DNA from: Candidatus Auribacterota bacterium
Lineage (GTDB): Bacteria; Auribacterota; Tritonobacteria; UBA1439
Direction: 5' to 3'
DNA length: 21,107 nt
Assembly (NCBI GenBank): GCA_026392015.1
Contig: JAPLCW010000146.1
Location: 1-21,107 of the forward strand
Shown piece by piece: positions 1 to 21,107 of the stretch; within the stretch, counting starts at the first letter, position 1; the number at the start of each line of letters is the position of its first letter. A program made the position numbers and the translations under genes. The notes beneath the pieces were generated by a model that was not told the origin of the DNA, did no database searches, and was given only the letters and a program-made list of their open reading frames with translations.

Positions 1-446
1 TGCTGCAGCGGTACGGCTTGGTGCTTCCATCGACGCTTGCGACGGCGTAATGTCGCTGGGTTCAACCGCCGGATGCCGAAAACGGCACGTCCGGTGGTGT
101 GGGAGGGACTGCGGGCGAAATCCCGCAGCCCCGACCCGATCCATAATATGCTTTTCTGCAAGAGGTAACGATTGGATTCCTGCTGGAGTTTACCCTCGTG
201 AAAACGGGGACAGGAATGACTCGGAAAGCATGTAAATGTCTTTTAATTGGAAACGGGGGAAAGTCCTCCTCCCGCAACGGCGAATAATTGACTAAAACCT
301 TCACCCAGTAGGTGCGGCTGAGTTAAAAACAATAATTTTGCAGGGTCTTGATTTATCAAGCCCGCCAACGGGTCGGATAAAACCTGTCCTGAGCTTGCCG
401 AAGAATCCGACCCCTACATTATCCGCCATTCCGGGCTCCTCTTGTC

Positions 447-675
447 TATTGTACTACAGGCTAAATTCTGCTATCATCAAACAACACGAGTAGCGGGGTA
501 TATCGAGCAAATTAGTCTTCTGCATACAGATCCCGGATACGAAAAAAAACCTTAGAAAACTTAGCGGCGCAAAGCCACGGGTCTAATTCTCGAGATAGCG
601 GAACAAGATGCCCGGACTACCGAAGATCTCTAACGGAGATGAGAAGTAGTTCGGATTTTTTATTGAACGGAAGGG
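447..675 (+). promoter_or_regulatory. Conserved ~225-nt non-coding 'A' element, copy 1 (candidate cis-regulatory leader or small RNA ending in a terminator-like hairpin and T-run), directly upstream of the S8 protease gene
   Basis: About 80% identical to 11237-11458. The nested hairpin is conserved in both copies (outer CCGAAG/TTCGG, inner ATCTC-loop-GAGAT with a differing loop) and is followed by T6 (655-662). No ORF is shared between the copies. Confidence 0.4.
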
Positions 676-3689: not shown

Positions 3690-3946
3690 AATCAGGGAAA
3701 AACTTGGGACGCATAAACGGAATAAGGCCGGGGCGGTAGAATGATTTACCATCCACCTGATAGCATTGAGAAGGTATTAGATAAGATGCGCCAGGATTTG
3801 AGAAAGACAGAGCCGTGCTTCTGTGATAAGTGCCGTCCTTTATTCCACGGTTTTTTAAACGGTGGTTTGAGAGATAGCCGGATAAGTAGGAGCGGGAAGC
3901 CAGTTTATATTATAAGGAAACAATCAAGCCAAAGGAGGGGATAAAG
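3690..3946 (+). promoter_or_regulatory. 'U' 5' element copy 1: TATA-like CATATAAACGG, small-ORF region, GGAAGCC(G/A)GTTTATAT box and AAGGAGGG ribosome-binding site
   Basis: Shares 75-90% nucleotide identity with the other U copies listed below. Confidence 0.55.
3741..3944 (+). CDS. Small conserved ORF inside the U element (MIYHPPDSIEKVLDKM..CFCDKCRPLF..); this copy has an ATG but a 1-nt deletion changes the C-terminus
   Basis: Peptide IEK.LDK.HKEL.KAE.CFCDKCRPLF..F.KRWFK.YPDK is recoverable from 7 copies. An ATG lies about 23 nt downstream of a TATAAA-like box, consistent with a leaderless transcript. No copy is fully intact. Confidence 0.3.
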   Translation: MIYHPPDSIEKVLDKMRQDLRKTEPCFCDKCRPLFHGFLNGGLRDSRISRSGKPVYIIRKQSSQRRG

Positions 3947-4780
3947 ATGAGAGCAACATTAGTGGTAGTTGCAAACGTGATGTTGATGGCGGGTTTGTGC
4001 GGCACGATGATAGCGGGGAGTATTGATTCACCCGGCGCGCCATCAGCGGGAAGCGGGATGTATACACTCTCTCAGATATATGATTACATGAACTCGGGGA
4101 TAGACGTAACACCTATACCAAGTTTCCAAGAACCCGCCGTGGCTCCCGGACCGACGATGAAGACCACGAAGCAGATTTACGAGGACATCAAGGCGAAATT
4201 TGCCCAGTGCAACGCGACTGCCGATGTTGTGATGCCGGGCTATACGTTTTTCTGCACGCAGCCGGGGAGTTGGGGAGTACAAACGGGAAACTATGTAACC
4301 CCAACCCCAACCTCAACGCCAACCCTAACCCCGACCATAACCCCCTCACCCACCCCAACTATAACTCCAACCTGCCCAACCGGTGACCCTTGGTATGTGC
4401 AATATGGACCGTGTGGGGAGGGTAAAGTGGTTCTGATAGGGAGCATGTACGTTGCCAAGTGGACAAATAATGAGGGCACCGCAAGCAACGAGAGAAAGGG
4501 TTGGCCCGCCGCCCGCCAATGGGCCACCGGACTAGACTGGTTAGGCAAGGACTCTGGATGGAGGCTTCCGACGGATATTGAAATAGCCTCCATATGTGAG
4601 GCCAAGTCTAGCCTGGGCGCGTACGAGGCTGAGACCCGCCCATATTACTGGTCCGACACCCAGCGCGACTCCGCGTCGGCCAACTGGATCGAGGACTTCT
4701 CTAGGCCTGTGGATTGCACCGTGCAGAGCGGCAACTGGGTCGACACTAACCGCGTGCGCGCCGTGCGTAATGCAATGTGA
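3947..4780 (+). CDS. Secreted modular paralog: N-module subtype II, PT linker, DUF1566/Lcl-C-terminal-like domain
   Basis: Signal peptide MRATLVVVANVMLMAGLCGTMIAG|S. Motifs GWRLPTDIEIASI..YYWSDT..VRAVRNAM. AAGGAGGG ribosome-binding site 6 nt upstream. Stop is TGA. Confidence 0.85.
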   Translation: MRATLVVVANVMLMAGLCGTMIAGSIDSPGAPSAGSGMYTLSQIYDYMNSGIDVTPIPSFQEPAVAPGPTMKTTKQIYEDIKAKFAQCNATADVVMPGYTFFCTQPGSWGVQTGNYVTPTPTSTPTLTPTITPSPTPTITPTCPTGDPWYVQYGPCGEGKVVLIGSMYVAKWTNNEGTASNERKGWPAARQWATGLDWLGKDSGWRLPTDIEIASICEAKSSLGAYEAETRPYYWSDTQRDSASANWIEDFSRPVDCTVQSGNWVDTNRVRAVRNAM

Positions 4781-4861: not shown

Positions 4862-4946
4862 GACGCGAAGCGCATGCCATCTGCGGAGATAACTCCGAAA
4901 TTTCTCTGGAGAAGATCCGTGATTTTATCGTAAACAAATAATGAGG
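4862..4946 (+). repeat. 'D' 3' element copy 1 (first hairpin degenerate; second hairpin and the ATTTTATCGTAAACAAATAATGAGG tail intact)
   Basis: Aligns to the consensus seen after each paralog. Confidence 0.6.
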
Positions 4947-5220
4947 AAAGAATAGAGCAGAATCAGGCAAATGATAAGGGCATATAAACGGAATAAGGCC
5001 GGGGCGATAGCATAATTTGCCGTCCATCTGAAATCATTGAGAAGGTACTAGACAAGATACACAAGGAGCTACAGAAGGCAGAGGTATGCTTCTGTGATAA
5101 GTGCCGTCCTTTGTTTCAGAAGTTTATCAAACGCTGGTTTAAGAGATACCCGGACAAGTAAGAGTTGGAAAGCCGGTTTATATATAAAGGGAAACAAGCA
5201 AACCAAAGGAGGGCGGAAAG
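4947..5220 (+). promoter_or_regulatory. 'U' 5' element copy 2 (small ORF lacks an ATG: ATA)
   Basis: Conserved sequence. TTTATATATA at 5177-5186. Ribosome-binding site AAGGAGGG at 5206-5213. Confidence 0.55.
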
Positions 5221-6033
5221 ATGAGAGCAACATTAGTGGTAATTTTAAGCGTGATGTTTGCGGCGGGTTTGTGCGGTACGGTGGTTGCGGGGAGTATTGA
5301 TTCACCCGGGTTGCCCACGGCGGGGAGCGGGATGTACACGCTCCAGAACCTGTATGACTACCTTACGAGCGGCACGGCGCTCATGGTGCAGACCAGTTTC
5401 CAGGAGCCCGCCTCGGGCCCCGGCTCGACGATGAAGAGCACGAAGGAGATCGGTGACGCGATCAAAGATAAGTTCAACCTGTGCGCTGCCACAACCGATA
5501 ATGTTGAACAGGGAGTGACTTTCTTCTGCACGCAGCCGGGAAGCTGGGGAGTTCAGACAGGAACATTAGTTGCGCTGCCGAGACCGACAGCAACCCCAAC
5601 CTCAACCGCAACCCCAACCGCAACCCCAACGCCGACGTGGGGCCAGACCAGATGCGAGGCGAAGGGCGGCTTGTGGGCACCGCTAAATGGCGGGCTAGTG
5701 GGGAATGGCTGCTGGTTCAAAGCGGCATTTCAGGAAAACTGCAGCGCGGCTTGTGGAGCCCTTACCCTAGGATGTGATACGAGACAGTGGAACGACAACG
5801 GGACTGTAACTTGCAGCATTATGAGGCAATTAGGGCCCAGTACTTGCTCATTCTGTCAGTCTGGGGGTTCTTCAATGGGCGACACATCATCTCCGGCGAT
5901 TGGGACGTCGTACTGGGAAGGGACTGGATGCATCTATCGGCCGGACTCAGTCAGCCAGGCATGCGATGCTACTATAAACACGAGTGACGCTAATTGGGGC
6001 AAACGGATCTGCGTCTGCAACCCTGAGCCGTAG
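5221..6033 (+). CDS. Secreted modular paralog: N-module subtype I, PT linker, Cys-rich C-terminal domain (type A)
   Basis: Signal peptide. SGMYTLQNLYDYLTSG..FFCTQPGSWGVQTG. (TPT)n linker. About 16 Cys in the C-terminal 130 aa. Stop is TAG. Confidence 0.85.
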   Translation: MRATLVVILSVMFAAGLCGTVVAGSIDSPGLPTAGSGMYTLQNLYDYLTSGTALMVQTSFQEPASGPGSTMKSTKEIGDAIKDKFNLCAATTDNVEQGVTFFCTQPGSWGVQTGTLVALPRPTATPTSTATPTATPTPTWGQTRCEAKGGLWAPLNGGLVGNGCWFKAAFQENCSAACGALTLGCDTRQWNDNGTVTCSIMRQLGPSTCSFCQSGGSSMGDTSSPAIGTSYWEGTGCIYRPDSVSQACDATINTSDANWGKRICVCNPEP

Positions 6034-6150
6034 ACTCTATCATCTGAATCATCCGCGGGTGGGCGGGCGCTATGCGCTTTCCCACCTGCGGAGATAACTC
6101 CGGATCTTCTCTGGAGAAGATCAGTGATTTTATCGTAAGTAAATAATAAG
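6034..6150 (+). repeat. 'D' 3' element copy 2: hairpin 1 (6053-6091, CCGCGGGTGGG..CCCACCTGCGG), hairpin 2 (6103-6122, GATCTTCTC-TG-GAGAAGATC), T-rich tail
   Basis: Perfect inverted repeats read directly from the sequence. Confidence 0.7.
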
Positions 6151-6258
6151 TTGGAGTAGGGCATAGCCAGAGAAGCAGGGAGAGTAAGATCAAGGCGAGG
6201 GCATAATTTTCGATGGTGGAATCAAGAGAGTGGGCTGTTGTTTACCGTAGCCGGGACT

Positions 6259-6284
6259 GTAGCCGATACTTAAGTATCGGCTAC
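6259..6284. repeat. Perfect 26-nt palindrome GTAGCCGATACTTAAGTATCGGCTAC in the spacer between D2 and U3
   Basis: The 11-nt arms are exact reverse complements around TTAA. A partial direct copy GTAGCCGGG lies just upstream. Confidence 0.6.
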
Positions 6285-6317
6285 AATATCTATCATAAAT
6301 CTTAAAAAGCCCACACT

Positions 6318-6541
6318 TTTTCTTGCATGATCTAATTTTCTGTCCGCCTAAAAGCATTGAGAAGGTACGAGACAAGATGCACAAGGAACCAGACAAGCTA
6401 GAGGCGTGCTTCTGTGATTAGTGCCATCCATTATTCCGCAGGTTTATCAAAAGCTGGTTTAAGAGATACCCGGACAAGTAGGAACTGGAAAGCCGGTTTA
6501 TATATTATAAGGAAACAATCAAACCAAAGGAGGGAATGAAG
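6318..6541 (+). promoter_or_regulatory. 'U' 5' element copy 3 (small ORF carries an in-frame TAG at 6419-6421, where other copies have AAG)
   Basis: Conserved sequence. TTTATATATTATAAGG box. Ribosome-binding site AAGGAGGGAATGAAG. Confidence 0.5.
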
Positions 6542-7345
6542 ATGAGAACAACATTAGTGGTAATTTTAAGTGTGATGTTAATGGCGGGTGTGTGCGGCAT
6601 GGTGGTTGCGGGGAGTATTGATTCCCCCGGCGCGCCTTCTGCGGGAAGCGGGATGTACACGCTCCAGAACCTGTATGATTACCTGACGAGCGGCACTGCG
6701 CTCACGGTGCAGACCAGTTTCCAGGAGCCCACGTCAGGTCCCGGCTCAACGATGAAAACCACAAAACAGATCGGGGATGCCATCGCAACATCATTTGCCT
6801 TGTGCGATGCGACTGCCGACAAAGTAGCGAGCGGCACGAGGTTCTTCAGCACGGTGCCGGGAAGCTGGGGTGTGCAGACGGGGACATTAGTTGTAGTGCC
6901 AACCCCAACCCCGACCATAACTCCCACCATAACCCCAACCCCGACCATAACCCCAACCGCAACGCCAACAGTCCCTGCATATTGTTCCTCCGCTAACGGC
7001 TACTGGGCCCCGAAGAATGATGGCTCGGGAGAGAGCGGGTGTTGGATTAAGGGGGCTGTCGCCACCAGCTGTAACACAGCGTGCAACTCAAAAGGGTTGA
7101 AATGCGACCAAGTGAATTTTAACGACCCCGAGTGTTCAATAATACCAAATATACCTGGAGCTTTTCCGTGCAGCACTTGCGGGGGGTCGCTGACATACGG
7201 CAACGCCGTGCAAGCGATCCAGGGGTGTGGAAGCTGTGGAGGGTCGGGGGCGTGTCGCGTGAATCCCGCCGGGACCGCGCAGGACTGTTCAGCAACCTTC
7301 ACCGACACTAACTGGTATCTGCTTTGCGTCTGTATTCCCAACTGA
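6542..7345 (+). CDS. Secreted modular paralog: N-module subtype I, PT linker, Cys-rich C-terminal domain (type A')
   Basis: The N-terminal 120 aa are about 85% identical to the 5221 gene and nearly identical to the 9104(-) gene. An alternative ATG lies at 6536. Stop is TGA. Confidence 0.85.
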   Translation: MRTTLVVILSVMLMAGVCGMVVAGSIDSPGAPSAGSGMYTLQNLYDYLTSGTALTVQTSFQEPTSGPGSTMKTTKQIGDAIATSFALCDATADKVASGTRFFSTVPGSWGVQTGTLVVVPTPTPTITPTITPTPTITPTATPTVPAYCSSANGYWAPKNDGSGESGCWIKGAVATSCNTACNSKGLKCDQVNFNDPECSIIPNIPGAFPCSTCGGSLTYGNAVQAIQGCGSCGGSGACRVNPAGTAQDCSATFTDTNWYLLCVCIPN

Positions 7346-7452
7346 CCAGATGATCATCCGCGGGTGGGAGGGCGTTGCGCGCCTTCCCACCTGCGGAGAT
7401 AACTCAGGATCTTCTCTGGAGAAGATAGGTGATTTTATCGCAAGCAATAATC
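7346..7452 (+). repeat. 'D' 3' element copy 3
   Basis: Both hairpins are present. The 3' flank GGAGTAGGGCATAGCCAGAGAAGC is shared with D2, which suggests recent duplication. Confidence 0.7.
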
Positions 7453-7881
7453 AATGGAAGTAGGGCATAGCCAGAGAAGCGAAGACCCTAAGCGAAGTCG
7501 AAGAGACCTTGTCGAAGTAAGGGCAAGGGTGGGGGGGCTCTATCCCCCAAGACTGACAGTAGTGACTCAATTTGGATGCCTTTGATTTGTAGAGGTTCGA
7601 CGAACTTGTCCTGAGAGAAGCCGAAGGATCAAGCCCCTACAACATAGAATAGTTATATTCTGTATGTAATAGAGACACTGCCAGACTGACCCAGTACCGC
7701 TATTCAGGACGCAGATGAACGCAGAGCACGCAGGTACAAAAATGGTTCGAAGTGAAAATCCCAAGTCTGAAAGCTGCTGTTTTGCTAATCTTAATCTGCG
7801 TTATCCGCGGAATCCGCGTCCCAATAAATTGGGCGGGAGTGGTGATTGGGCTATTTTGCACAATGAAAGGAAGGTGGCAAG

Positions 7882-11236: not shown

Positions 11237-11458
11237 TATTGTAATACCAGCTAAATTCTGCTATCATCGAGAAACGAGTAGCGGGTTATATCGAGGAGAG
11301 TGATCGCTTACATACAGATCCGAAAAAGCAAACCTTAGAAAACTTAGGGGCACAAAGCCACGGGTCTAAATCCCGCCGTAGCGGGACAAGATGGCCGGAC
11401 TGCCGAAGATCTCTAATGAGATAAGAGGTAGTTCGGCTTTTTTATAGTTGGGGAAGGA
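11237..11458 (+). promoter_or_regulatory. Conserved 'A' element copy 2 (see 447-675)
   Basis: About 80% identical to copy 1. Hairpin GCCGAAG..ATCTC-TAAT-GAGAT..TTCGGC followed by T6. Lies about 340 nt upstream of the 11798 gene. Confidence 0.4.
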
Positions 11459-11797
11459 TATACTCCTGTAGTGCGTTTCCGGGGTCAAATCTTTATCCTT
11501 GAATTTTAGAAGGCAGGACAGCTTTCCGGCAGTTTGATGTAAATTGATTCTGGCGCAAAGTGCTGGGTCAGCGTGAGAAAGAGTGTAGCTTAAGTTTGTG
11601 CTTCATACTATTCAAGCCGCGGAGGTACGGAAAGGGCGGGGATGCAACGTGACATTGTTATTGCATTCTTTGCGCTTGATTCTGGCTACCCCCTGCTTCT
11701 CGGGAGGCAGGTCGGGCAGGCCCAAAGGGCATGGTTTCTGCGGTGGAATATATCATTCACCACTATTGCGGCCAAAAGAGAAAGGAGAGTTGAAAAG

Positions 11798-12598: not shown

Positions 12599-12721
12599 TA
12601 GATCATGCGGATCAAATTCGCAGTCCTTCCCCAATGGGGATTCAGAATTTGTGCAAGTCATAACAATCATTCATTTTCAATTTATTTTTTGGGTTATGGT
12701 TATATTGCATGACAACATGAT

Positions 12722-12836
12722 TTGACTATCCGCAGTTGGGCGGGCGTTGCGCGCTTTCCCATCTGCGGAGATAACTCCGGATCTTCTCTGGAGAAGATCA
12801 GTGATTTTATGTAAGCAAATAATGAGTGGGAGTAAG
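12722..12836 (+). repeat. 'D' 3' element copy 5
   Basis: Both hairpins are present (CCGCAGTTGGG..CCCATCTGCGG shows G-T and T-G changes that keep pairing with wobbles). Confidence 0.7.
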
Positions 12837-12884
12837 GCGGTCTTGTGGTGAAAGTTGAGCTGAGTATCCGGGCGGCGGCGATTC

Positions 12885-13040
12885 CCGGCGATACGGAAAA
12901 GTCCGGGCTCACCCAATACAAGGTACCCCCCCGACCAAGTGGGGTATATGTAATATGACAACGGTGATATACACATACTCTCTTACTCAAACACCGGGGG
13001 CAAGGACAAAAGGTATGGGAAAAGGAAGTGATGCGATGAG
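12885..13040 (+). repeat. 'E' element copy 1 (~150-nt conserved non-coding repeat: ACGGAAAAG.CCGGGCTCACCCAATACAAGGTACCCCCCCGACCAAG.GGGGTATATGTAATATG.CAACGGTGATATACAC...CAGACACCGGGGG..GATGGACAAAAGGTA.TGGGAAAGGAAG)
   Basis: Three copies: here, 18005-18165 and 19245-19380. Confidence 0.5.
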
Positions 13041-14237: not shown

Positions 14238-14382
14238 ATGGCCGCAGATTTGATCCGTTTTAGCCGTTGCCGGCAAGGGAGTGCAGTTTTCGAATTGCTC
14301 CCTGTCGGCGTCGGAGATAACTCCGGATCTTCTCTGGAGAAGATCAGTGATTTTATCGTAAACAAATAATGAGGGAAGGATA
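14238..14382 (+). repeat. 'D' 3' element copy 6 (hairpin 1 diverged, hairpin 2 and tail intact)
   Basis: Alignment to the consensus. Confidence 0.6.
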
Positions 14383-14626
14383 GAGCAGGATCACGGAATA
14401 GTACAGGGGCGATAGCATAATTTGCCGTCCACCTGAAAACATTGAGAAGGCACTAGACAAGATGCACAAGGAGCTAGAGAATGCAGAGGTATGCTTCGGT
14501 GATAAGTGCCGTCCTTTGTTTCATAGGTTTATCAAACGCTGGTTTAAGAGATACCCGGACAAGTAGGAGTTGGAGAGCCGGTTTATATATTACAAGGAAA
14601 TAATCAAACCAAAGGGGGGAGTACAG
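14383..14626 (+). promoter_or_regulatory. 'U' 5' element copy 4 (small-ORF peptide NIEKALDKMHKELENAEVCFGDKCRPLFHRFIKRWFKRYPDK; no ATG)
   Basis: Conserved sequence. TTTATATATTACAAGG. Ribosome-binding site AAGGGGGG. Confidence 0.55.
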
Positions 14627-15625
14627 ATGAGAACAACATTAGTGGTGGTTGTAAGCGTGATGTTTGCGGTCGGCCTGAGCGGAATGGCAGTTGCCGGGAG
14701 CATGGATTCCCCCGGCGCCCCATCATTGGGAAGCGGGATGTACACGCTCCAGAACCTGTACGACTACCTGACGAGCGGCGACGCGCTCAGCGTTGCCGGA
14801 GATTTCCAGGAGCCGAGCGCAGCTCCGGGCTCAACGATGAAGAGCACAAAGGAGATCGGCGACGCGATCAAAGCGTTATTCGAGCAGTGCCCCGTCATGG
14901 CTGACAACGTTGAGTCGGGCGTAAAATTTTTCTGCACCCAGCCGGGAAGCTGGGGAGTGCGGACGGGGACATTGGTTGCGCTGCCGAGGCCGACAGCAAC
15001 ACCAACGGTAACGCCGACAGCAACGTGGGCCTGCGGATCAACATTTACGGATTCAAGGGACGGCAAAGTATACAGCACCGTCCTGATCGGATCCCAATGC
15101 TGGATGAAGCAGAACCTGAATGTGGGAACAAGAATTGACACGGCGACCGATCAAGGTACCAGTTGTTCTTCAATACAGAAGTACTGCCGTGATAACCTCG
15201 AATCCGGGTGCGAAACATATGGAGGTCATTACCAGATGCCACAGGCTATGTGTGGATCAACAGAACCAGGCACCCAGGGCATATGCTTCGATGGATGGCA
15301 TGTTGCTACAGAAGCTGAGTGGTGTACATTACTCCACAGTTTAGATTCCACAGTGGTGTGTGGTTCGTGGGAAGGTCGCATCGGTACTAATGTAGGTACT
15401 AAATTGATGTTGTCTGGCCCAAATGATTTCTCAGAGATACTAGCGGGGTTACGGATAGCGGGGGGCTCGTTCGTCAACCTGGGTTCGGGTTATTTTCCAA
15501 GTTCGAATTTAAGGGGGGACGGCATGCATCGGCACATCGAAAACGATCCCCCAACGGGAGCTAATGTAGGAATACAAACCTGCCCACTGTCATTTGGCGA
15601 ATCCATCAGATGCCTCAGGGACTGA
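14627..15625 (+). CDS. Secreted modular paralog: N-module subtype I, PT linker, Fibrobacter-succinogenes-major-paralogous (FISUMP)-like C-terminal domain
   Basis: CGSTFTDSRDGKVYSTVLIGSQCWMKQNLNVGT matches the characteristic FISUMP opening motif. Stop is TGA. Confidence 0.82.
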   Translation: MRTTLVVVVSVMFAVGLSGMAVAGSMDSPGAPSLGSGMYTLQNLYDYLTSGDALSVAGDFQEPSAAPGSTMKSTKEIGDAIKALFEQCPVMADNVESGVKFFCTQPGSWGVRTGTLVALPRPTATPTVTPTATWACGSTFTDSRDGKVYSTVLIGSQCWMKQNLNVGTRIDTATDQGTSCSSIQKYCRDNLESGCETYGGHYQMPQAMCGSTEPGTQGICFDGWHVATEAEWCTLLHSLDSTVVCGSWEGRIGTNVGTKLMLSGPNDFSEILAGLRIAGGSFVNLGSGYFPSSNLRGDGMHRHIENDPPTGANVGIQTCPLSFGESIRCLRD

Positions 15626-15636
15626 GATTCGACAAT

Positions 15637-15742
15637 TTGACTATCTGCGGGTGGGCGGGCGCTGTGCGCTTTCCCACCTGCGGCGATAACTCCGGATCTT
15701 CTCTGGAGAAGATCAGTGATTTTATCGTAAACAAATAATGAG
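15637..15742 (+). repeat. 'D' 3' element copy 7
   Basis: Both hairpins perfect. Confidence 0.7.
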
Positions 15743-16018
15743 CGGAGGCTAGGCGCAGAATCAGGAAAGAAATAGGAGCATATAAACGGAATAAGGCAGG
15801 CGCTACAGCATGATAACCGACCACCTGACGACATTGAGAAGGCACTGGACAAGCTCCACAAGGAACTACAGAAGGCAGAGGTATGCTTCTGTGACAAGTG
15901 CCGTTCTTTGTTTCATAGGTTTGTTAAACGCTGGTTTAAGAAGTACCCGGACAAGTAGGAGCTGGAAAGCCGGTTTATGTATAATAAGGAAACAATCAAA
16001 CCAAAGGAGGGAGTAAAG
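15743..16018 (+). promoter_or_regulatory. 'U' 5' element copy 5 (small ORF out of frame relative to its ATG)
   Basis: Conserved sequence, TATA-like boxes, ribosome-binding site AAGGAGGG. Confidence 0.55.
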
Positions 16019-16807
16019 ATGAGAACAACATTAGTGGTGGTTGTAAGCGTGATGTTTTCGGTCGGGATGGCCGGAATGGCCGTTGCCGGGAGTATTGATT
16101 CACCCGGTGCGCCATCAGCGGGAAGCGGGATGTACTCACTCACGCAGGTCTATGACTACCTGAATTCGGGGATAGAGGTAACGCCTGTCCCAAGTTTTCA
16201 GGAACCAAGCTCAGCCCCTGGCTCGACGATGAAGACGCTGAAGGATATCTACGATGACCTCAGGGCGAAGTATATCCAATGCACTGTGACAGCTGACAAG
16301 GTTAAGTCAGGGGAGAAGTTCTTTTGCACGCAGCCGGGAAGATGGGGAGTGCAGACAGGGACGGCGTATATACCCCCAACCCCAACCCCAACCTCAATCC
16401 CAACTCCAACCCCAACAAAAACCTTTTACGAGCAATACGGCCCGCCACCTGGGGAGGATAAAGTGGTGCACATAGGGAGCATGTATGTTGCCAAGTGGAC
16501 GGATAATGAAGGCACCGCTATGAACGATGGAAAAATCTGGACCGTTGCCTGTTCCTGGGGTACCGATCTAGTATGGTTGGGTAAGGATGACTGGAGGCTG
16601 CCGACGAAAGATGAGCTAATCAGTATATGTACGAATAGGGGGAGCTTAGGCGCATATCACGATGTGGTTAGATATTGGTCCTCCACTGCATATGATGAAA
16701 GTTTCGCGTGGTCAACGTGGTTTTCCGTTGCTGATGGTTGTGCAACCGATCATGATGCCGATAAACCATCCGGGCGGTTTATCCGAGCAGTCCGGAATGC
16801 CGATTAA
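16019..16807 (+). CDS. Secreted modular paralog: N-module subtype II, PT linker, DUF1566/Lcl-C-terminal-like domain
   Basis: DWRLPTKDELISICTNRGSLGAY..RYWSSTAYD..IRAVRNAD. Stop is TAA. Confidence 0.85.
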   Translation: MRTTLVVVVSVMFSVGMAGMAVAGSIDSPGAPSAGSGMYSLTQVYDYLNSGIEVTPVPSFQEPSSAPGSTMKTLKDIYDDLRAKYIQCTVTADKVKSGEKFFCTQPGRWGVQTGTAYIPPTPTPTSIPTPTPTKTFYEQYGPPPGEDKVVHIGSMYVAKWTDNEGTAMNDGKIWTVACSWGTDLVWLGKDDWRLPTKDELISICTNRGSLGAYHDVVRYWSSTAYDESFAWSTWFSVADGCATDHDADKPSGRFIRAVRNAD

Positions 16808-16817
16808 CTGGCGTTTG

Positions 16818-16928
16818 ACATTTTGACTATTCGCAGGTGGGCGGGCGCTGCGCGATTTCCCACCTGCGGAGGTAACTCTTGATCTTCTCTGGAGAAGATC
16901 AGTGATTTTATCGTAAACAAATAATGAG
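16818..16928 (+). repeat. 'D' 3' element copy 8
   Basis: Both hairpins present. Confidence 0.7.
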
Positions 16929-17181
16929 GGAAAGATAGAGCAGGACCACGGAATAGTACCGGGGCGATACCATGATTTACCGCCCATCTGATACCATTGA
17001 GAAGGCACTAGCCAAGATGCACAATGAGATAGAGAAAGCAGAGGCGTGCTTCTGTGACAAGTGCCGTCCGTTGTTTTAGAGGTTTATCAAACGCTGGTTT
17101 GAGAAGTACCCGGACAAGCAGGAGTTGGAAAGCCAGTCTATATATTATAGGGAAACAATTAAACCAAAGAAGGAGGGAAGG
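16929..17181 (+). promoter_or_regulatory. 'U' 5' element copy 6 (small ORF with ATG at 16972, in-frame TAG at 17077-17079, terminal TAG replaced by CAG so the frame runs into the next gene)
   Basis: Conserved sequence. TCTATATATTATAGGG. Ribosome-binding site AAGAAGGAGGGAAGG. Confidence 0.5.
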
Positions 17182-17931
17182 ATGAGAGCAAAATTAGTGG
17201 TAGTTGTAAGCGTGATGTTGATGGCGGGCCTGTGCAGCATGGTGGTTGCGGGGAGTCTTGACTCACCGGGAGCTCCGTCGGCGGGGAGCGGGATGTACAC
17301 GCTTCAGCAGGTGTATGACTATTTGTATGCGGGGACGGTGCCGACAATTCCCGAGAGTTTCTAGGAGCCGATCGCGGGTCCTGTTTCTACGATGAAGACT
17401 ACAAAACAGATAGTGGAGGCCGTTGCAACGCCGTTCGCCCAGTGCTCCGCTACGGCTGCTGATGTTAAATCAGGCGTGAATTTTTTCTCCACGGTGTCGG
17501 GGAGCTGGGGAGTGGCGACGGGAACCATGGCACTCACAGGAAATGCCGTAGCTGCTGATGTGATAAGCGGTAAGAATTTCTACTCCAATTCCTGGACACA
17601 GCAGACTGGGACGTTAACCCAGTATCCCGCAACTCCAAGCGGCTGGAGCGGTGCCTGCGTCTGGAAAGAAGGAAATTTTACGCAACAGGATTGTATAGAC
17701 CTTGGATATCCAAATAGGCATACAAGGGAGGTGTGCACGTCCTACGGTATTTCGGGAGGTGGAGCAAGTATATGGGCGTATGGCGGTTGTTCAAACTCAT
17801 GCACGGGTCCGGGTTGTTCTTCTTCCGTAACGTATGTATCCGGGAACTGTTGTGGGGTGTTTACATGCTCCAACTCAGCAGGCGTTGGAGTTTGTGTGGC
17901 CTCCAGTATATACACATACTGCTGCAAATAA
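17182..17931 (+). pseudogene. Modular paralog interrupted by a single in-frame TAG at 17362-17364 (within the conserved SFQEP motif, where all paralogs have CAG); Cys-rich C-terminal domain type B
   Basis: ORFs 17125-17364 and 17392-17931 are in the same frame. ..PESF*EPIAGPVSTMKTTKQI..FFSTVSGSWGVATG continues the family alignment. The PT linker is replaced by a different segment. Confidence 0.7.
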
Positions 17932-18004: not shown

Positions 18005-18165
18005 CCCGGCGAGACGGAAAAGACCGGGCTCACCCAATACAAGGTACCCCCCCGACCAAGCGGGGTATATGTAATATGGCAACGGTGATATACACTCTCG
18101 CAGTCAGACACCGGGGGTGGATGGACAAAAGGTACTGGGAAAGGAAGCAGATATGCAGAGGATCG
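18005..18165 (+). repeat. 'E' element copy 2
   Basis: About 85% identical to 12885-13040. Confidence 0.5.
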
Positions 18166-18999: not shown

Positions 19000-19225
19000 G
19001 GCGCATTATCGTAAACAAATAATGAGGGAAGGAGAGAGTAGGATCAGGGCGTAGTACCAGGGTAATACCATGATTGAACGTACAGACGATAACATTGAGA
19101 AGGCACTGGACAAGCTCCACAAGGAATTATAGAAGGTAGAGGGGTGTTTCTGTGATAAGTGCCGACCTTTGTTTCACAAGTTTGTTAAGCGGTGGTTTAA
19201 GAAGTATCCGGGCAAGTAGAGGCGG
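18975..19225 (+). repeat. REP-like hairpin (TTTGTTTGCTAAGGCGCATTATCGTAAACAAATAATGAGG) plus a truncated 'U' element remnant (small ORF with ATG at about 19069 and in-frame TAG at 19130-19132; no TATA box or paralog follows)
   Basis: Alignment to the D tail and the U consensus; similarity stops before the GCCGGTTTATATAT box. Confidence 0.5.
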
Positions 19226-19244
19226 GAAGCCGTAAGCATCCAGC

Positions 19245-19380
19245 TAACCCAGCCCACCGACACCCCTACAAGGGGGCAGAGTAATATACGGCATGGTGTT
19301 ACATACTCTCTTAGTCAGACACCAGGGGGTTGATGGACAAAAGGTACTGGGATAGGAAGTGATAGTGTATTACGTTAATA
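19245..19380 (+). repeat. 'E' element copy 3 (5' part diverged)
   Basis: Core ATACTCTCTTAGTCAGACACCAGGGGGTTGATGGACAAAAGGTACTGGGATAGGAAGTGAT is conserved. Confidence 0.45.
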
Positions 19381-20674: not shown

Positions 20675-20833
20675 ATGGCGAAATATGACAAGGTGAGCGG
20701 ATACTGCAGAAAGCCGCAGCCGGACACGGCCGACATTACTATCGAGCGGAAATGTCTCGTGTGCGGGGAAATGATGGCGAGCACTCCGTCGCACAGGATT
20801 CACGAGCGATGTCGGCAGCGGGTGGGCAAGTGA
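20675..20833 (+). CDS. Small zinc-finger-like protein (52 aa; C-x15-CxxC-x15-C)
   Basis: GGGGGCAGGGAGG ribosome-binding site. MAKYDKVSGYCRKPQPDTADITIERKCLVCGEMMASTPSHRIHERCRQRVGK. Flanked by REP-like repeats. Below the 60-aa track threshold. Confidence 0.4.
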   Translation: MAKYDKVSGYCRKPQPDTADITIERKCLVCGEMMASTPSHRIHERCRQRVGK

Positions 20834-20861: not shown

Positions 20862-20915
20862 GCTGTAGTTTGTTTAAGGAAAGCCACATTATCGTAAACA
20901 AATAATGAACGAATC
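20862..20915 (+). repeat. REP-like element: GTAG followed by hairpin TTTGTTTA-N20-TAAACAAA and tail TAATGA
   Basis: The 8-bp arms are exact reverse complements. The GTAG tetranucleotide lies 5' of the hairpin, as in REPs recognised by RayT transposases. Confidence 0.5.
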
Positions 20916-20968: not shown

Positions 20969-21107
20969 ATGGCAAGACCGCTGAGGATTGAATATCCAGG
21001 GGCATGGTACCATGTTACAAGCCGCGGGAGCGAGCGAGGGGAGATATTCCGGGACGACAGAGACAGGAAGCGATTTCTTGAAGCATTAAAAGAGAGCATA
21101 GAGAGAT
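20969..21107 (+). CDS. N-terminal fragment of a RayT / IS200-like (Y1, HUH) tyrosine transposase; truncated by the window end
   Basis: MARPLRIEYPGAWYHVTSRGSERGEIFRDDRDRKRFLEALKE matches the conserved N-terminus (RIEY.GA.YHV..RGN.R..IF.DD.DR..FL) of REP-associated tyrosine transposases. Confidence 0.7.
   Translation, partial: MARPLRIEYPGAWYHVTSRGSERGEIFRDDRDRKRFLEALKESIER

Follow-up and report, generated by a model that had tools for sequence, protein, structure and literature searches.

A repeated 5' element in a secreted-protein gene array of a Candidatus Auribacterota bacterium: probable pseudogene copies of a rare small-protein gene

Short open reading frames that lie upstream of a regulated gene are well known from leader and arrest peptides of the trpL, tnaC and secM types, and pseudogenes that are co-amplified in tandem gene arrays evolving in concert are a general phenomenon. 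Both can be compared with a repeated element, here called U, that occurs in the 5' regions of secreted-protein genes on contig JAPLCW010000146.1 of a Candidatus Auribacterota bacterium (assembly GCA_026392015.1); the whole stretch of 21,107 nt that was analysed is referred to as the window. Like trpL, tnaC and secM, U contains a short co-oriented ORF upstream of another gene, with a hairpin and a T/A-rich run after the stop codon in some copies; unlike these, its copies are untranslatable, have no runs of regulatory codons and no supported alternative pairing, and its intact relatives conserve the whole peptide and precede unrelated genes. Like co-amplified pseudogenes, U is a relic inside a duplication unit, with independent lesions in each copy, an identity equal to that of the neighbouring non-coding DNA and a tree that is discordant with that of the adjacent domain; it differs from the usual case in that the relic lies in a 5' control region, and some of its DNA may serve cassette expression. 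The c-di-GMP-I riboswitch leaders (RF01051) offer a further comparison, as one of them occupies the equivalent 5' position before a sister cassette, but U neither matches Rfam nor shows covariation, and its folding is no more stable than that of shuffled sequences.

A conserved repeat whose reading frame is broken everywhere looks like a candidate for an RNA or regulatory element, and a sequence-only reading of this locus had preferred a structured RNA, a regulatory DNA module or a decaying leader peptide over a protein gene. Our analysis serves as a corrective: we consider it probable that U represents seven pseudogenised copies of a genuine small-protein gene of ~49 aa that were co-amplified with the cassettes, so that ordinary processes (co-amplification, concerted evolution and pseudogene decay) would explain the element.

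The window contains eleven paralogous secreted-protein genes, which we call cassettes. They are built from a signal peptide, a conserved N-domain of ~115 aa (GSIDSPGAPSAGSGMYTLQNLYDY...FFCTQPGSWGVQTGT), a Thr/Pro linker and a variable C-domain, the latter including Lcl_C/DUF1566, fibrinogen-like, Fib_succ_major and Cys-rich types; an example of the 'type A' genes, with a signal peptide starting MRATLVV, is found at 5221..6033 (+). In a species-level genome collection the N-domain was found elsewhere only in a metagenome-assembled genome (MAG) of Candidatus Tritonobacter lacicola (Auribacterota, PVC group) and in one uncultured MAG, at ~55% identity. U itself is absent from both of these, the nearest genomes with the cassette N-domain, by nhmmer as well as tblastn, and it goes unmentioned among the titles or abstracts listed by a literature search on Auribacterota and Tritonobacter.

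The element had been placed immediately 5' of each cassette promoter. This is correct for six of the eleven cassettes, namely the type A genes starting at 3947, 5221, 6542, 14627, 16019 and 17182, which form a subfamily with the signal peptide MR[AT]TLVV (MRAKLVV in c10); the other five have no U, and the promoter is itself putative. A different leader is common to cassettes c4 and c7, and c6 is preceded by a c-di-GMP-I riboswitch. As U is confined to one subfamily while its sisters have other leaders, a single founder unit seems to account for its distribution, rather than repeated recruitment. The 5' control regions of this hypervariable secreted-protein family thus appear to be built from interchangeable leaders, which in the window comprise U, the c-di-GMP-I riboswitch, an element called 'V' (described below) and the fourth leader common to c4 and c7. 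The riboswitch (RF01051) lies at 11317-11407 (+), upstream of the cassette starting at 11795, and scores 57.6 bits; a weaker copy at 537-624 (+), with 31 bits below the gathering score of 35, lies upstream of an 855-aa subtilase gene. The two are 87% identical (repeat D12), and their positions suggest that part of the secreted-protein repertoire is under c-di-GMP control.

A search of the window with a profile of the element (nhmmer) returned exactly seven copies, the number that had been counted before, at E-values from 1e-57 to 1e-73 and with spans of 3720-3933, 4990-5207, 6323-6529, 14395-14613, 15788-16005, 16950-17168 and 19049-19252. The core TGCTTCTGTGATAAGTGCCGTCC (CFCDKC) occurs seven times in the window at up to two mismatches, against zero expected. 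The single conserved frame that had been described is likewise seen in all seven copies; it has 49 codons and reads ..IEK.LDK.HKEL..E.CFCDKCRPLF..F.K.WFK.YPDK*. In none of the seven is the ORF intact from ATG to stop, and each copy has at least one lesion.

The lesions, all described on the forward strand, are of several kinds. Copy c1 (3741..3889) retains its ATG at 3741 and has a 1-nt deletion after 3848 and a TAG at 3875 (codon 46), the original stop being at 3887-3889. Copy c2 (5012..5161) starts with ATA and is otherwise open over 49 codons to its TAA stop at 5159; c8 (14417..14566) has the same ATA start, and its conserved Cys28 is changed to Gly (GGT). In c3 (6332..6481) the start position reads CTA and Lys30 has become TAG at 6419. 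In c9 (15810..15958) the 47 codons that follow a 1-nt deletion in codon 2 are no longer in frame with the ATG, while c10 (16972..17121) has a TAG at 17077 (codon 36) and CAG in place of its stop at 17119-17121. Finally, the stand-alone copy c11 (19070..19219) has a TAG at 19130 (codon 21); no cassette gene follows it, and the promoter-like 'V' repeat is found there instead, as after an intact homologue in the metagenomic contig L020. A defect in every copy had been reported earlier, and the ATA starts of c2 and c8, the 1-nt deletions of c1 and c9 and the TAG codons bear this out; the exception is an in-frame TAA ascribed to the copy at 6318, which lies outside the conserved frame and follows a chance ATG in a foreign segment. 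This segment takes the place of the c3 5' flank at about 6160-6331, and contains a perfect 26-nt palindrome, GTAGCCGATACTTAAGTATCGGCTAC, at about 6259-6284.

The c1 sequence, lesions included, is 100% identical in an independent Logan assembly (L021), and c1 is the only copy so confirmed; for the lesions of c9 and c10, and for the c2 cassette, there is nothing on record in other assemblies. On the reverse strand no frame is open with a start codon across all copies, and a reverse-strand gene was rejected; the -2 frame is partly open, as expected for the strand opposite a Lys/Glu-rich ORF.

The closest relatives of U are small proteins encoded in metagenomes. Back-translated peptide motifs located an intact ORF of 49-50 aa in two JGI metagenome contigs, with 59% identity over residues 1-49, and the protein databases contained three intact homologues, P0001, P0002 and P0003. 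An exhaustive HMMER search of 1.84 billion representative proteins added only P0004 and P0005, along with the window's own c1 ORF (P0007), which argues for a family that is real but very small; its other matches were long repetitive proteins aligned over many short stretches, and we take these as spurious. A word-index protein search with the consensus peptide gave nothing, a negative that is unreliable because the exhaustive search later found relatives sharing long exact words with the query. P0001-P0005 are hypothetical proteins of 45-49 aa and thus define a rare, unannotated family. They have the same length as the U peptide and share with it the pattern IEK..D..HKEL...E..FC.KCRPLF..F.K.WF. 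In tblastn searches of the window with P0001, P0004 and P0005 all seven copies were matched, at E 7e-19 to 3e-11 (P0001 alone matched all seven at E 1e-11 to 7e-19), and the amino-acid identity to the window copies is 53-63% over up to all 49 residues for P0001 and up to 77% over 39 residues for P0005.

The intact proteins have the appearance of folded proteins, with the whole peptide conserved. The AlphaFold model is a helical hairpin in which an FCxKC loop joins two helices (residues 7-24 and 32-45), at a mean pLDDT of 80. A Foldseek search of this model against the PDB gave nothing at E < 5, and searches of Pfam and PHROGs gave only sub-threshold noise for the small protein. A phage origin was also considered and rejected, as there is no relative in IMG/VR.

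When the seven window copies are reduced to a majority consensus, the 49-codon ORF is intact, and every lesion is private to one copy except the ATA start common to c2 and c8; we therefore believe that their ancestor was intact. Together with the homology to intact genes, the intact consensus leads us to regard the U copies as pseudogenes of a real protein gene, and since every copy has a lesion they are filed as family pseudogenes, not as functional members. The earlier proposal of a decaying leader peptide rather than a protein gene was thus right about the decay, while the intact homologues, their low dN/dS and the intact consensus point to a protein gene as the source.

P0001-P0005 are encoded by intact single-copy genes, whereas the window copies are sevenfold and disrupted, and the selection acting on the two appears to differ. 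For three of the intact genes (in L005, L011 and L019) the pairwise dN/dS values are 0.05-0.12, with differences mostly at third codon positions; these genes are under strong purifying selection. Among the window copies, changes relative to the consensus amount to 43 synonymous, 75 non-synonymous and 4 stop (omega about 0.39). When each derived state is counted once, there are 28 synonymous and 54 non-synonymous events and 4 stops, from which omega is about 0.6 overall, about 0.75 for singleton (terminal) changes and about 0.44 for shared ones; pairwise dN/dS ranges from 0.06 to 0.42, although these pairs are not independent. The comparison of dN/dS with covariation that had been proposed as a check thus yields an omega of about 0.4-0.6 in the copies and no covariation. 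Selection on the peptide appears to be relaxed in the window copies, weaker by a factor of 5 to 10 than in the case of the intact relatives. It had been stated that differences between copies are not biased to third codon positions; the unique substitution events, 28/21/37 at positions 1/2/3, agree with this only roughly (chi-square p = 0.11), but there is a synonymous excess of 28 out of 86 against 20 expected (p = 0.03, kappa 2.65). A point against the pseudogene reading is that all seven copies are disrupted although the ancestor was presumably intact and this residual excess persists; the peptide would have to have become dispensable in the lineage, or an intact copy would have to lie elsewhere, beyond the 21-kb window.

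We find it very unlikely that the peptide is still made, whether through initiation at the ATA/ATT codons of c2 and c8, frameshifting or read-through of TAG, and that U is thus a functional small gene or upstream ORF. To some extent the weak synonymous excess would fit such a role, and so would c2, whose 49 codons are open and whose sole defect is the non-canonical start, which could still permit weak translation. In addition, all four internal stops are TAG, and the TAG of c1 falls at the exact codon where P0003, a natural homologue of 45 aa, ends. However, TAG-only nonsense is to be expected here, because 15 of the 23 single-base routes from this ORF to a stop codon (65%) give TAG, and the calculated probability of four out of four is about 0.18. 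TAG is also a true stop in this organism: it ends the cassette genes c2 and c5, in c2 at the position where the paralogue c3 ends in TGA. On these two grounds recoding or read-through of TAG was rejected. The four different kinds of lesion at different sites, the loss of the conserved Cys28 in c8 and an omega 5 to 10 times that of the intact homologues speak against production of the peptide as well. As a separate observation, the cassette gene of c10 (17182-17931, +) is open apart from a single in-frame TAG at 17362-17364, which replaces the invariant Gln of an FQEP motif, and c10 therefore has both its mini-ORF and its cassette disrupted.

For an element in the 5' region of cassettes whose paralogues have a riboswitch there, a structured RNA leader of the riboswitch or attenuator kind, or a leader peptide controlling a terminator before the cassette gene, has to be considered. 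The mini-ORF stop is directly followed by a small hairpin, (C/T)TGGAAAGCCGG, and a T/A-rich run, TTTATATAT, which together are terminator-like and pass a terminator scan in c3 only, and the C/T change in the hairpin stem keeps a G-U pair (pair 176-187). All tests of RNA structure were nonetheless negative. The covariation term of RNAalifold, +0.78 kcal/mol, is a penalty (with limited power for seven closely related sequences); no more than 4 of the 43 pairs have a double change, which is always limited to one sequence, and RNAalifold gave no alternative (antiterminator) pairing. Folding energies were no better than those of shuffled sequences, with z = +0.44 for c8 and -0.81 for c2, and in Rfam 15 no U copy had a match, either at the gathering threshold or at E <= 1. 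A stem ACAGAAG/CTTCTGT, which had been thought to be maintained by changes on both sides that give G-U pairs, cannot be distinguished from shuffles: 81.6% of cells are paired against 81.9% in the shuffles, no pair is changed on both sides, one pair is broken in four of the seven copies, and the two G-U changes are confined to c11. A structured RNA was thus rejected. As to a leader peptide, the ORF is untranslatable in every copy, a canonical start and an open frame never being found together, and the intact homologues conserve the whole peptide as a predicted helical hairpin, have no hairpin after the stop codon and precede unrelated genes. We thus consider both the RNA leader and the leader peptide to be most improbable.

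The strong conservation of U that is apparent from the copies is not particular to its ORF. The ORF has a mean pairwise identity of 0.81, and both the spacer that follows it and the signal-peptide codons have 0.82; the values are lower for the upstream 3' element (0.79), the mature N-domain (0.69) and the region 5' of the ATG (0.42), in which there are many deletions and one replacement. The ORF is therefore not specially conserved when compared with the rest of the 5' module. U is more conserved than the synonymous sites or third positions of the adjacent N-domain; between c2 and c8, for example, 6% of sites in U are different, against 38% of third positions in the N-domain. By N-domain, it is c2 and c3, not c2 and c8, that form the closest pair. 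The history of the 5' module is thus younger than that of the gene body and discordant with it, and from this discordance we infer gene conversion or unequal exchange within the module; constraint at the nucleotide level could explain the conservation of U relative to the N-domain as well as gene conversion.

The sequence between the mini-ORF and the cassette is where some function may persist. In c2 this post-ORF spacer lies at 5162..5220 (+), and it measures 60-63 nt in the array copies; the hairpin is followed by TTTATATAT(TAT)AAGG, the ribosome-binding-site ribbon AAAGGAGGG and the cassette ATG. Equivalent spacers on the same strand are found at 3890-3946, 6482-6541, 14567-14626, 15959-16018 and 17122-17181. 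The GGAAAGCCGGTTTATATAT box reported downstream of the mini-ORF is present in five copies at up to three mismatches, diverged in c1 and absent from c11. A scan for sigma-70 consensus sites (-35/-10 hexamers, 16-18 nt spacing) found none in this box in any copy, and the best promoter candidate there by eye is TTGGAA-15 nt-TATAAG. A leaderless transcript, which had been suggested on the grounds that the ATG follows a CATATAAAC box, finds no support in the copies: the box is present in only three of the seven (as a variant in c1, and in c2 and c9), c8, c10 and c11 having lost it by deletion and c3 by replacement, and G-rich, Shine-Dalgarno-like bases precede the mini-ORF ATG. In the units of c1, c3, c8, c9 and c10, five of the six that are cassette-linked, no stop interrupts the mini-ORF frame across the 60-63 nt spacer as far as the cassette ORF, and in c10, where the mini-ORF stop is now CAG, the two frames are fused; this open frame probably reflects shared ancestry rather than function.

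On its 5' side U is bounded by the 3' end of the preceding cassette. The junction motif TTATCGTAAACAAATAATGAGG marks the 5' edge of U at 4925..4946 (+), and recurs at 14353-14374, 15722-15743, 16908-16929, 19006-19027 and 20889-20910. Directly before U, within the 3' element of the upstream cassette, lies a terminator-like hairpin, GATCTTCTCTGGAGAAGATC followed by TGATTTTAT, at 6103..6122 (+), which is also found at 14326-14345, 15695-15714 and 16879-16902, with an imperfect copy near 4898-4920. The 3' elements that follow the cassette genes (4877-4946, 6029-6160, 7334-7465, 12706-12837, 14252-14383, 15621-15752 and 16807-16938) consist of a GC-rich hairpin GCGGGTGGG...CCCACCTGC, an GGAGATAACTCC hairpin and the terminator-like GATCTTCTCTGGAGAAGATC with its T-tract, and resemble a repeat of the REP/BIME type.

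Since U directly follows a terminator-like hairpin that belongs to the upstream gene, the promoter of the cassette should be within U or the spacer, and it could be argued that the former gene and the region downstream of it have been exapted as a promoter, operator or 5'-UTR module of the type A cassettes, under selection at the nucleotide level. The position of U and the spacer between this hairpin and the cassette RBS is in line with such a role, as are the conservation of U above that of N-domain third codon positions, the other leaders (including the c-di-GMP-I riboswitch) that sister cassettes have in the equivalent place, and the promoter-like leader found, in four of five external contexts, between the intact small gene and the gene directly downstream. 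On the other hand, conservation of the ORF does not exceed that of the spacer or the signal-peptide codons, the invariant blocks are those that are conserved as codons in the intact genes, the region 5' of the ATG is eroded by its deletions and replacement, and the sigma-70 scan found nothing consistent in U; the discordance of the trees already points to gene conversion. We thus regard exapted regulatory DNA as an unlikely explanation for the element. The 60-63 nt after the ORF, with the hairpin, the TA-rich box and the RBS, would be the only part that still matters for cassette expression, and a residual cis role of this spacer is plausible but unproven.

Decay of a co-amplified gene, the explanation that we prefer, may have proceeded as follows. 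One copy of the small gene would have come to sit directly upstream of a secreted-protein cassette gene, and tandem duplication of a unit made up of the terminator element, the small gene, the spacer with its ribosome-binding site, the signal peptide and the cassette would have given rise to the six cassette-linked copies, while the seventh, stand-alone c11 would retain the arrangement seen beside an intact homologue elsewhere. The ancestral gene was presumably intact; selection on the peptide would then have been relaxed, with separate lesions (loss of the start, a frameshift or a TAG) arising in the individual copies. What looks like strong conservation would be that of the whole 5' module, which is either younger than the downstream domain or was homogenised by gene conversion.

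Each intact member that was examined lies directly upstream of, and on the same strand as, another gene, an arrangement shared with U. The neighbours are mutually unrelated and include an MmeI-type restriction enzyme, a 292-aa membrane protein and a 76-aa membrane protein. We considered whether a conserved gene neighbour might hint at function, and found none: the neighbouring proteins in L005, L011/L013 and L019 are unrelated, and have no remnant in the window. A promoter-like sequence is found downstream of the small gene in four of the five external contexts and after window copy c11. Between L005 (10001-10256) and both L019 (1296-1555) and L022 (1421-1681) there is a discrete homology block of about 260 bp that reaches to the next start codon, the ORF being 72-81% and the leader 71-91% identical, while the flanks are unrelated. 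The leader in this block contains TTGTGATATCCT, an extended -10-like motif. For L019 and L022 the leader (~110 nt) is 91% identical, but the proteins only about 69%.

A different downstream sequence is common to L020, which contains the gene for P0005, and c11: the 'V' repeat with GGTGATATA(G/C). Copies of 'V' are found at 12884-13030, 18005-18150 and 19265-19360 of the window and at 1250-1320 of L020; in this repeat an extended -10-like GGTGATATACAC stands before the first codons of a small ORF (MDKRYW..). In L020 the 'V' sequence lies after the intact P0005 gene and before a gene for a 76-aa membrane protein (MDKYLWRILL..), and this arrangement is kept at c11. We speculate, as a rather improbable extension, that the small gene and its ~110-nt leader form a portable module of ~260 bp, in which a tiny regulator and its target promoter are recombined before unrelated genes, such as the three named above in other metagenomes and the secreted lectin-like cassettes in the window; the array copies would then have lost the peptide, while their DNA would still provide the promoter and RBS together with a homology tract for shuffling or homogenising the cassettes. 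The contexts of 'V' and of the leader support a portable small-gene-plus-promoter module, but do not prove it.

A few further features were found towards the edges of the window. At 20675-20833 (+) there is a 52-aa Cys-containing ORF (MAKYDKVSGYCRKPQ...CLVCGEMM...), which is preceded by a variant of the junction motif, ATTATCGGAAGTAAATAA, and has no match in Pfam. The junction motif at 20889-20910 (+), TTATCGTAAACAAATAATGA, precedes an ORF at 20969-21107 (MARPLRIEYPGAWYHVTSRG...) that is cut off by the end of the window. It resembles the N-terminus of IS200/RayT-type Y1 transposases, but its 46-aa fragment had no match in sequence searches of Pfam and the PDB. At the left edge, positions 64-140 (+) match the catalytic domain of a group II intron in Rfam (43.7 bits, E 9e-06).
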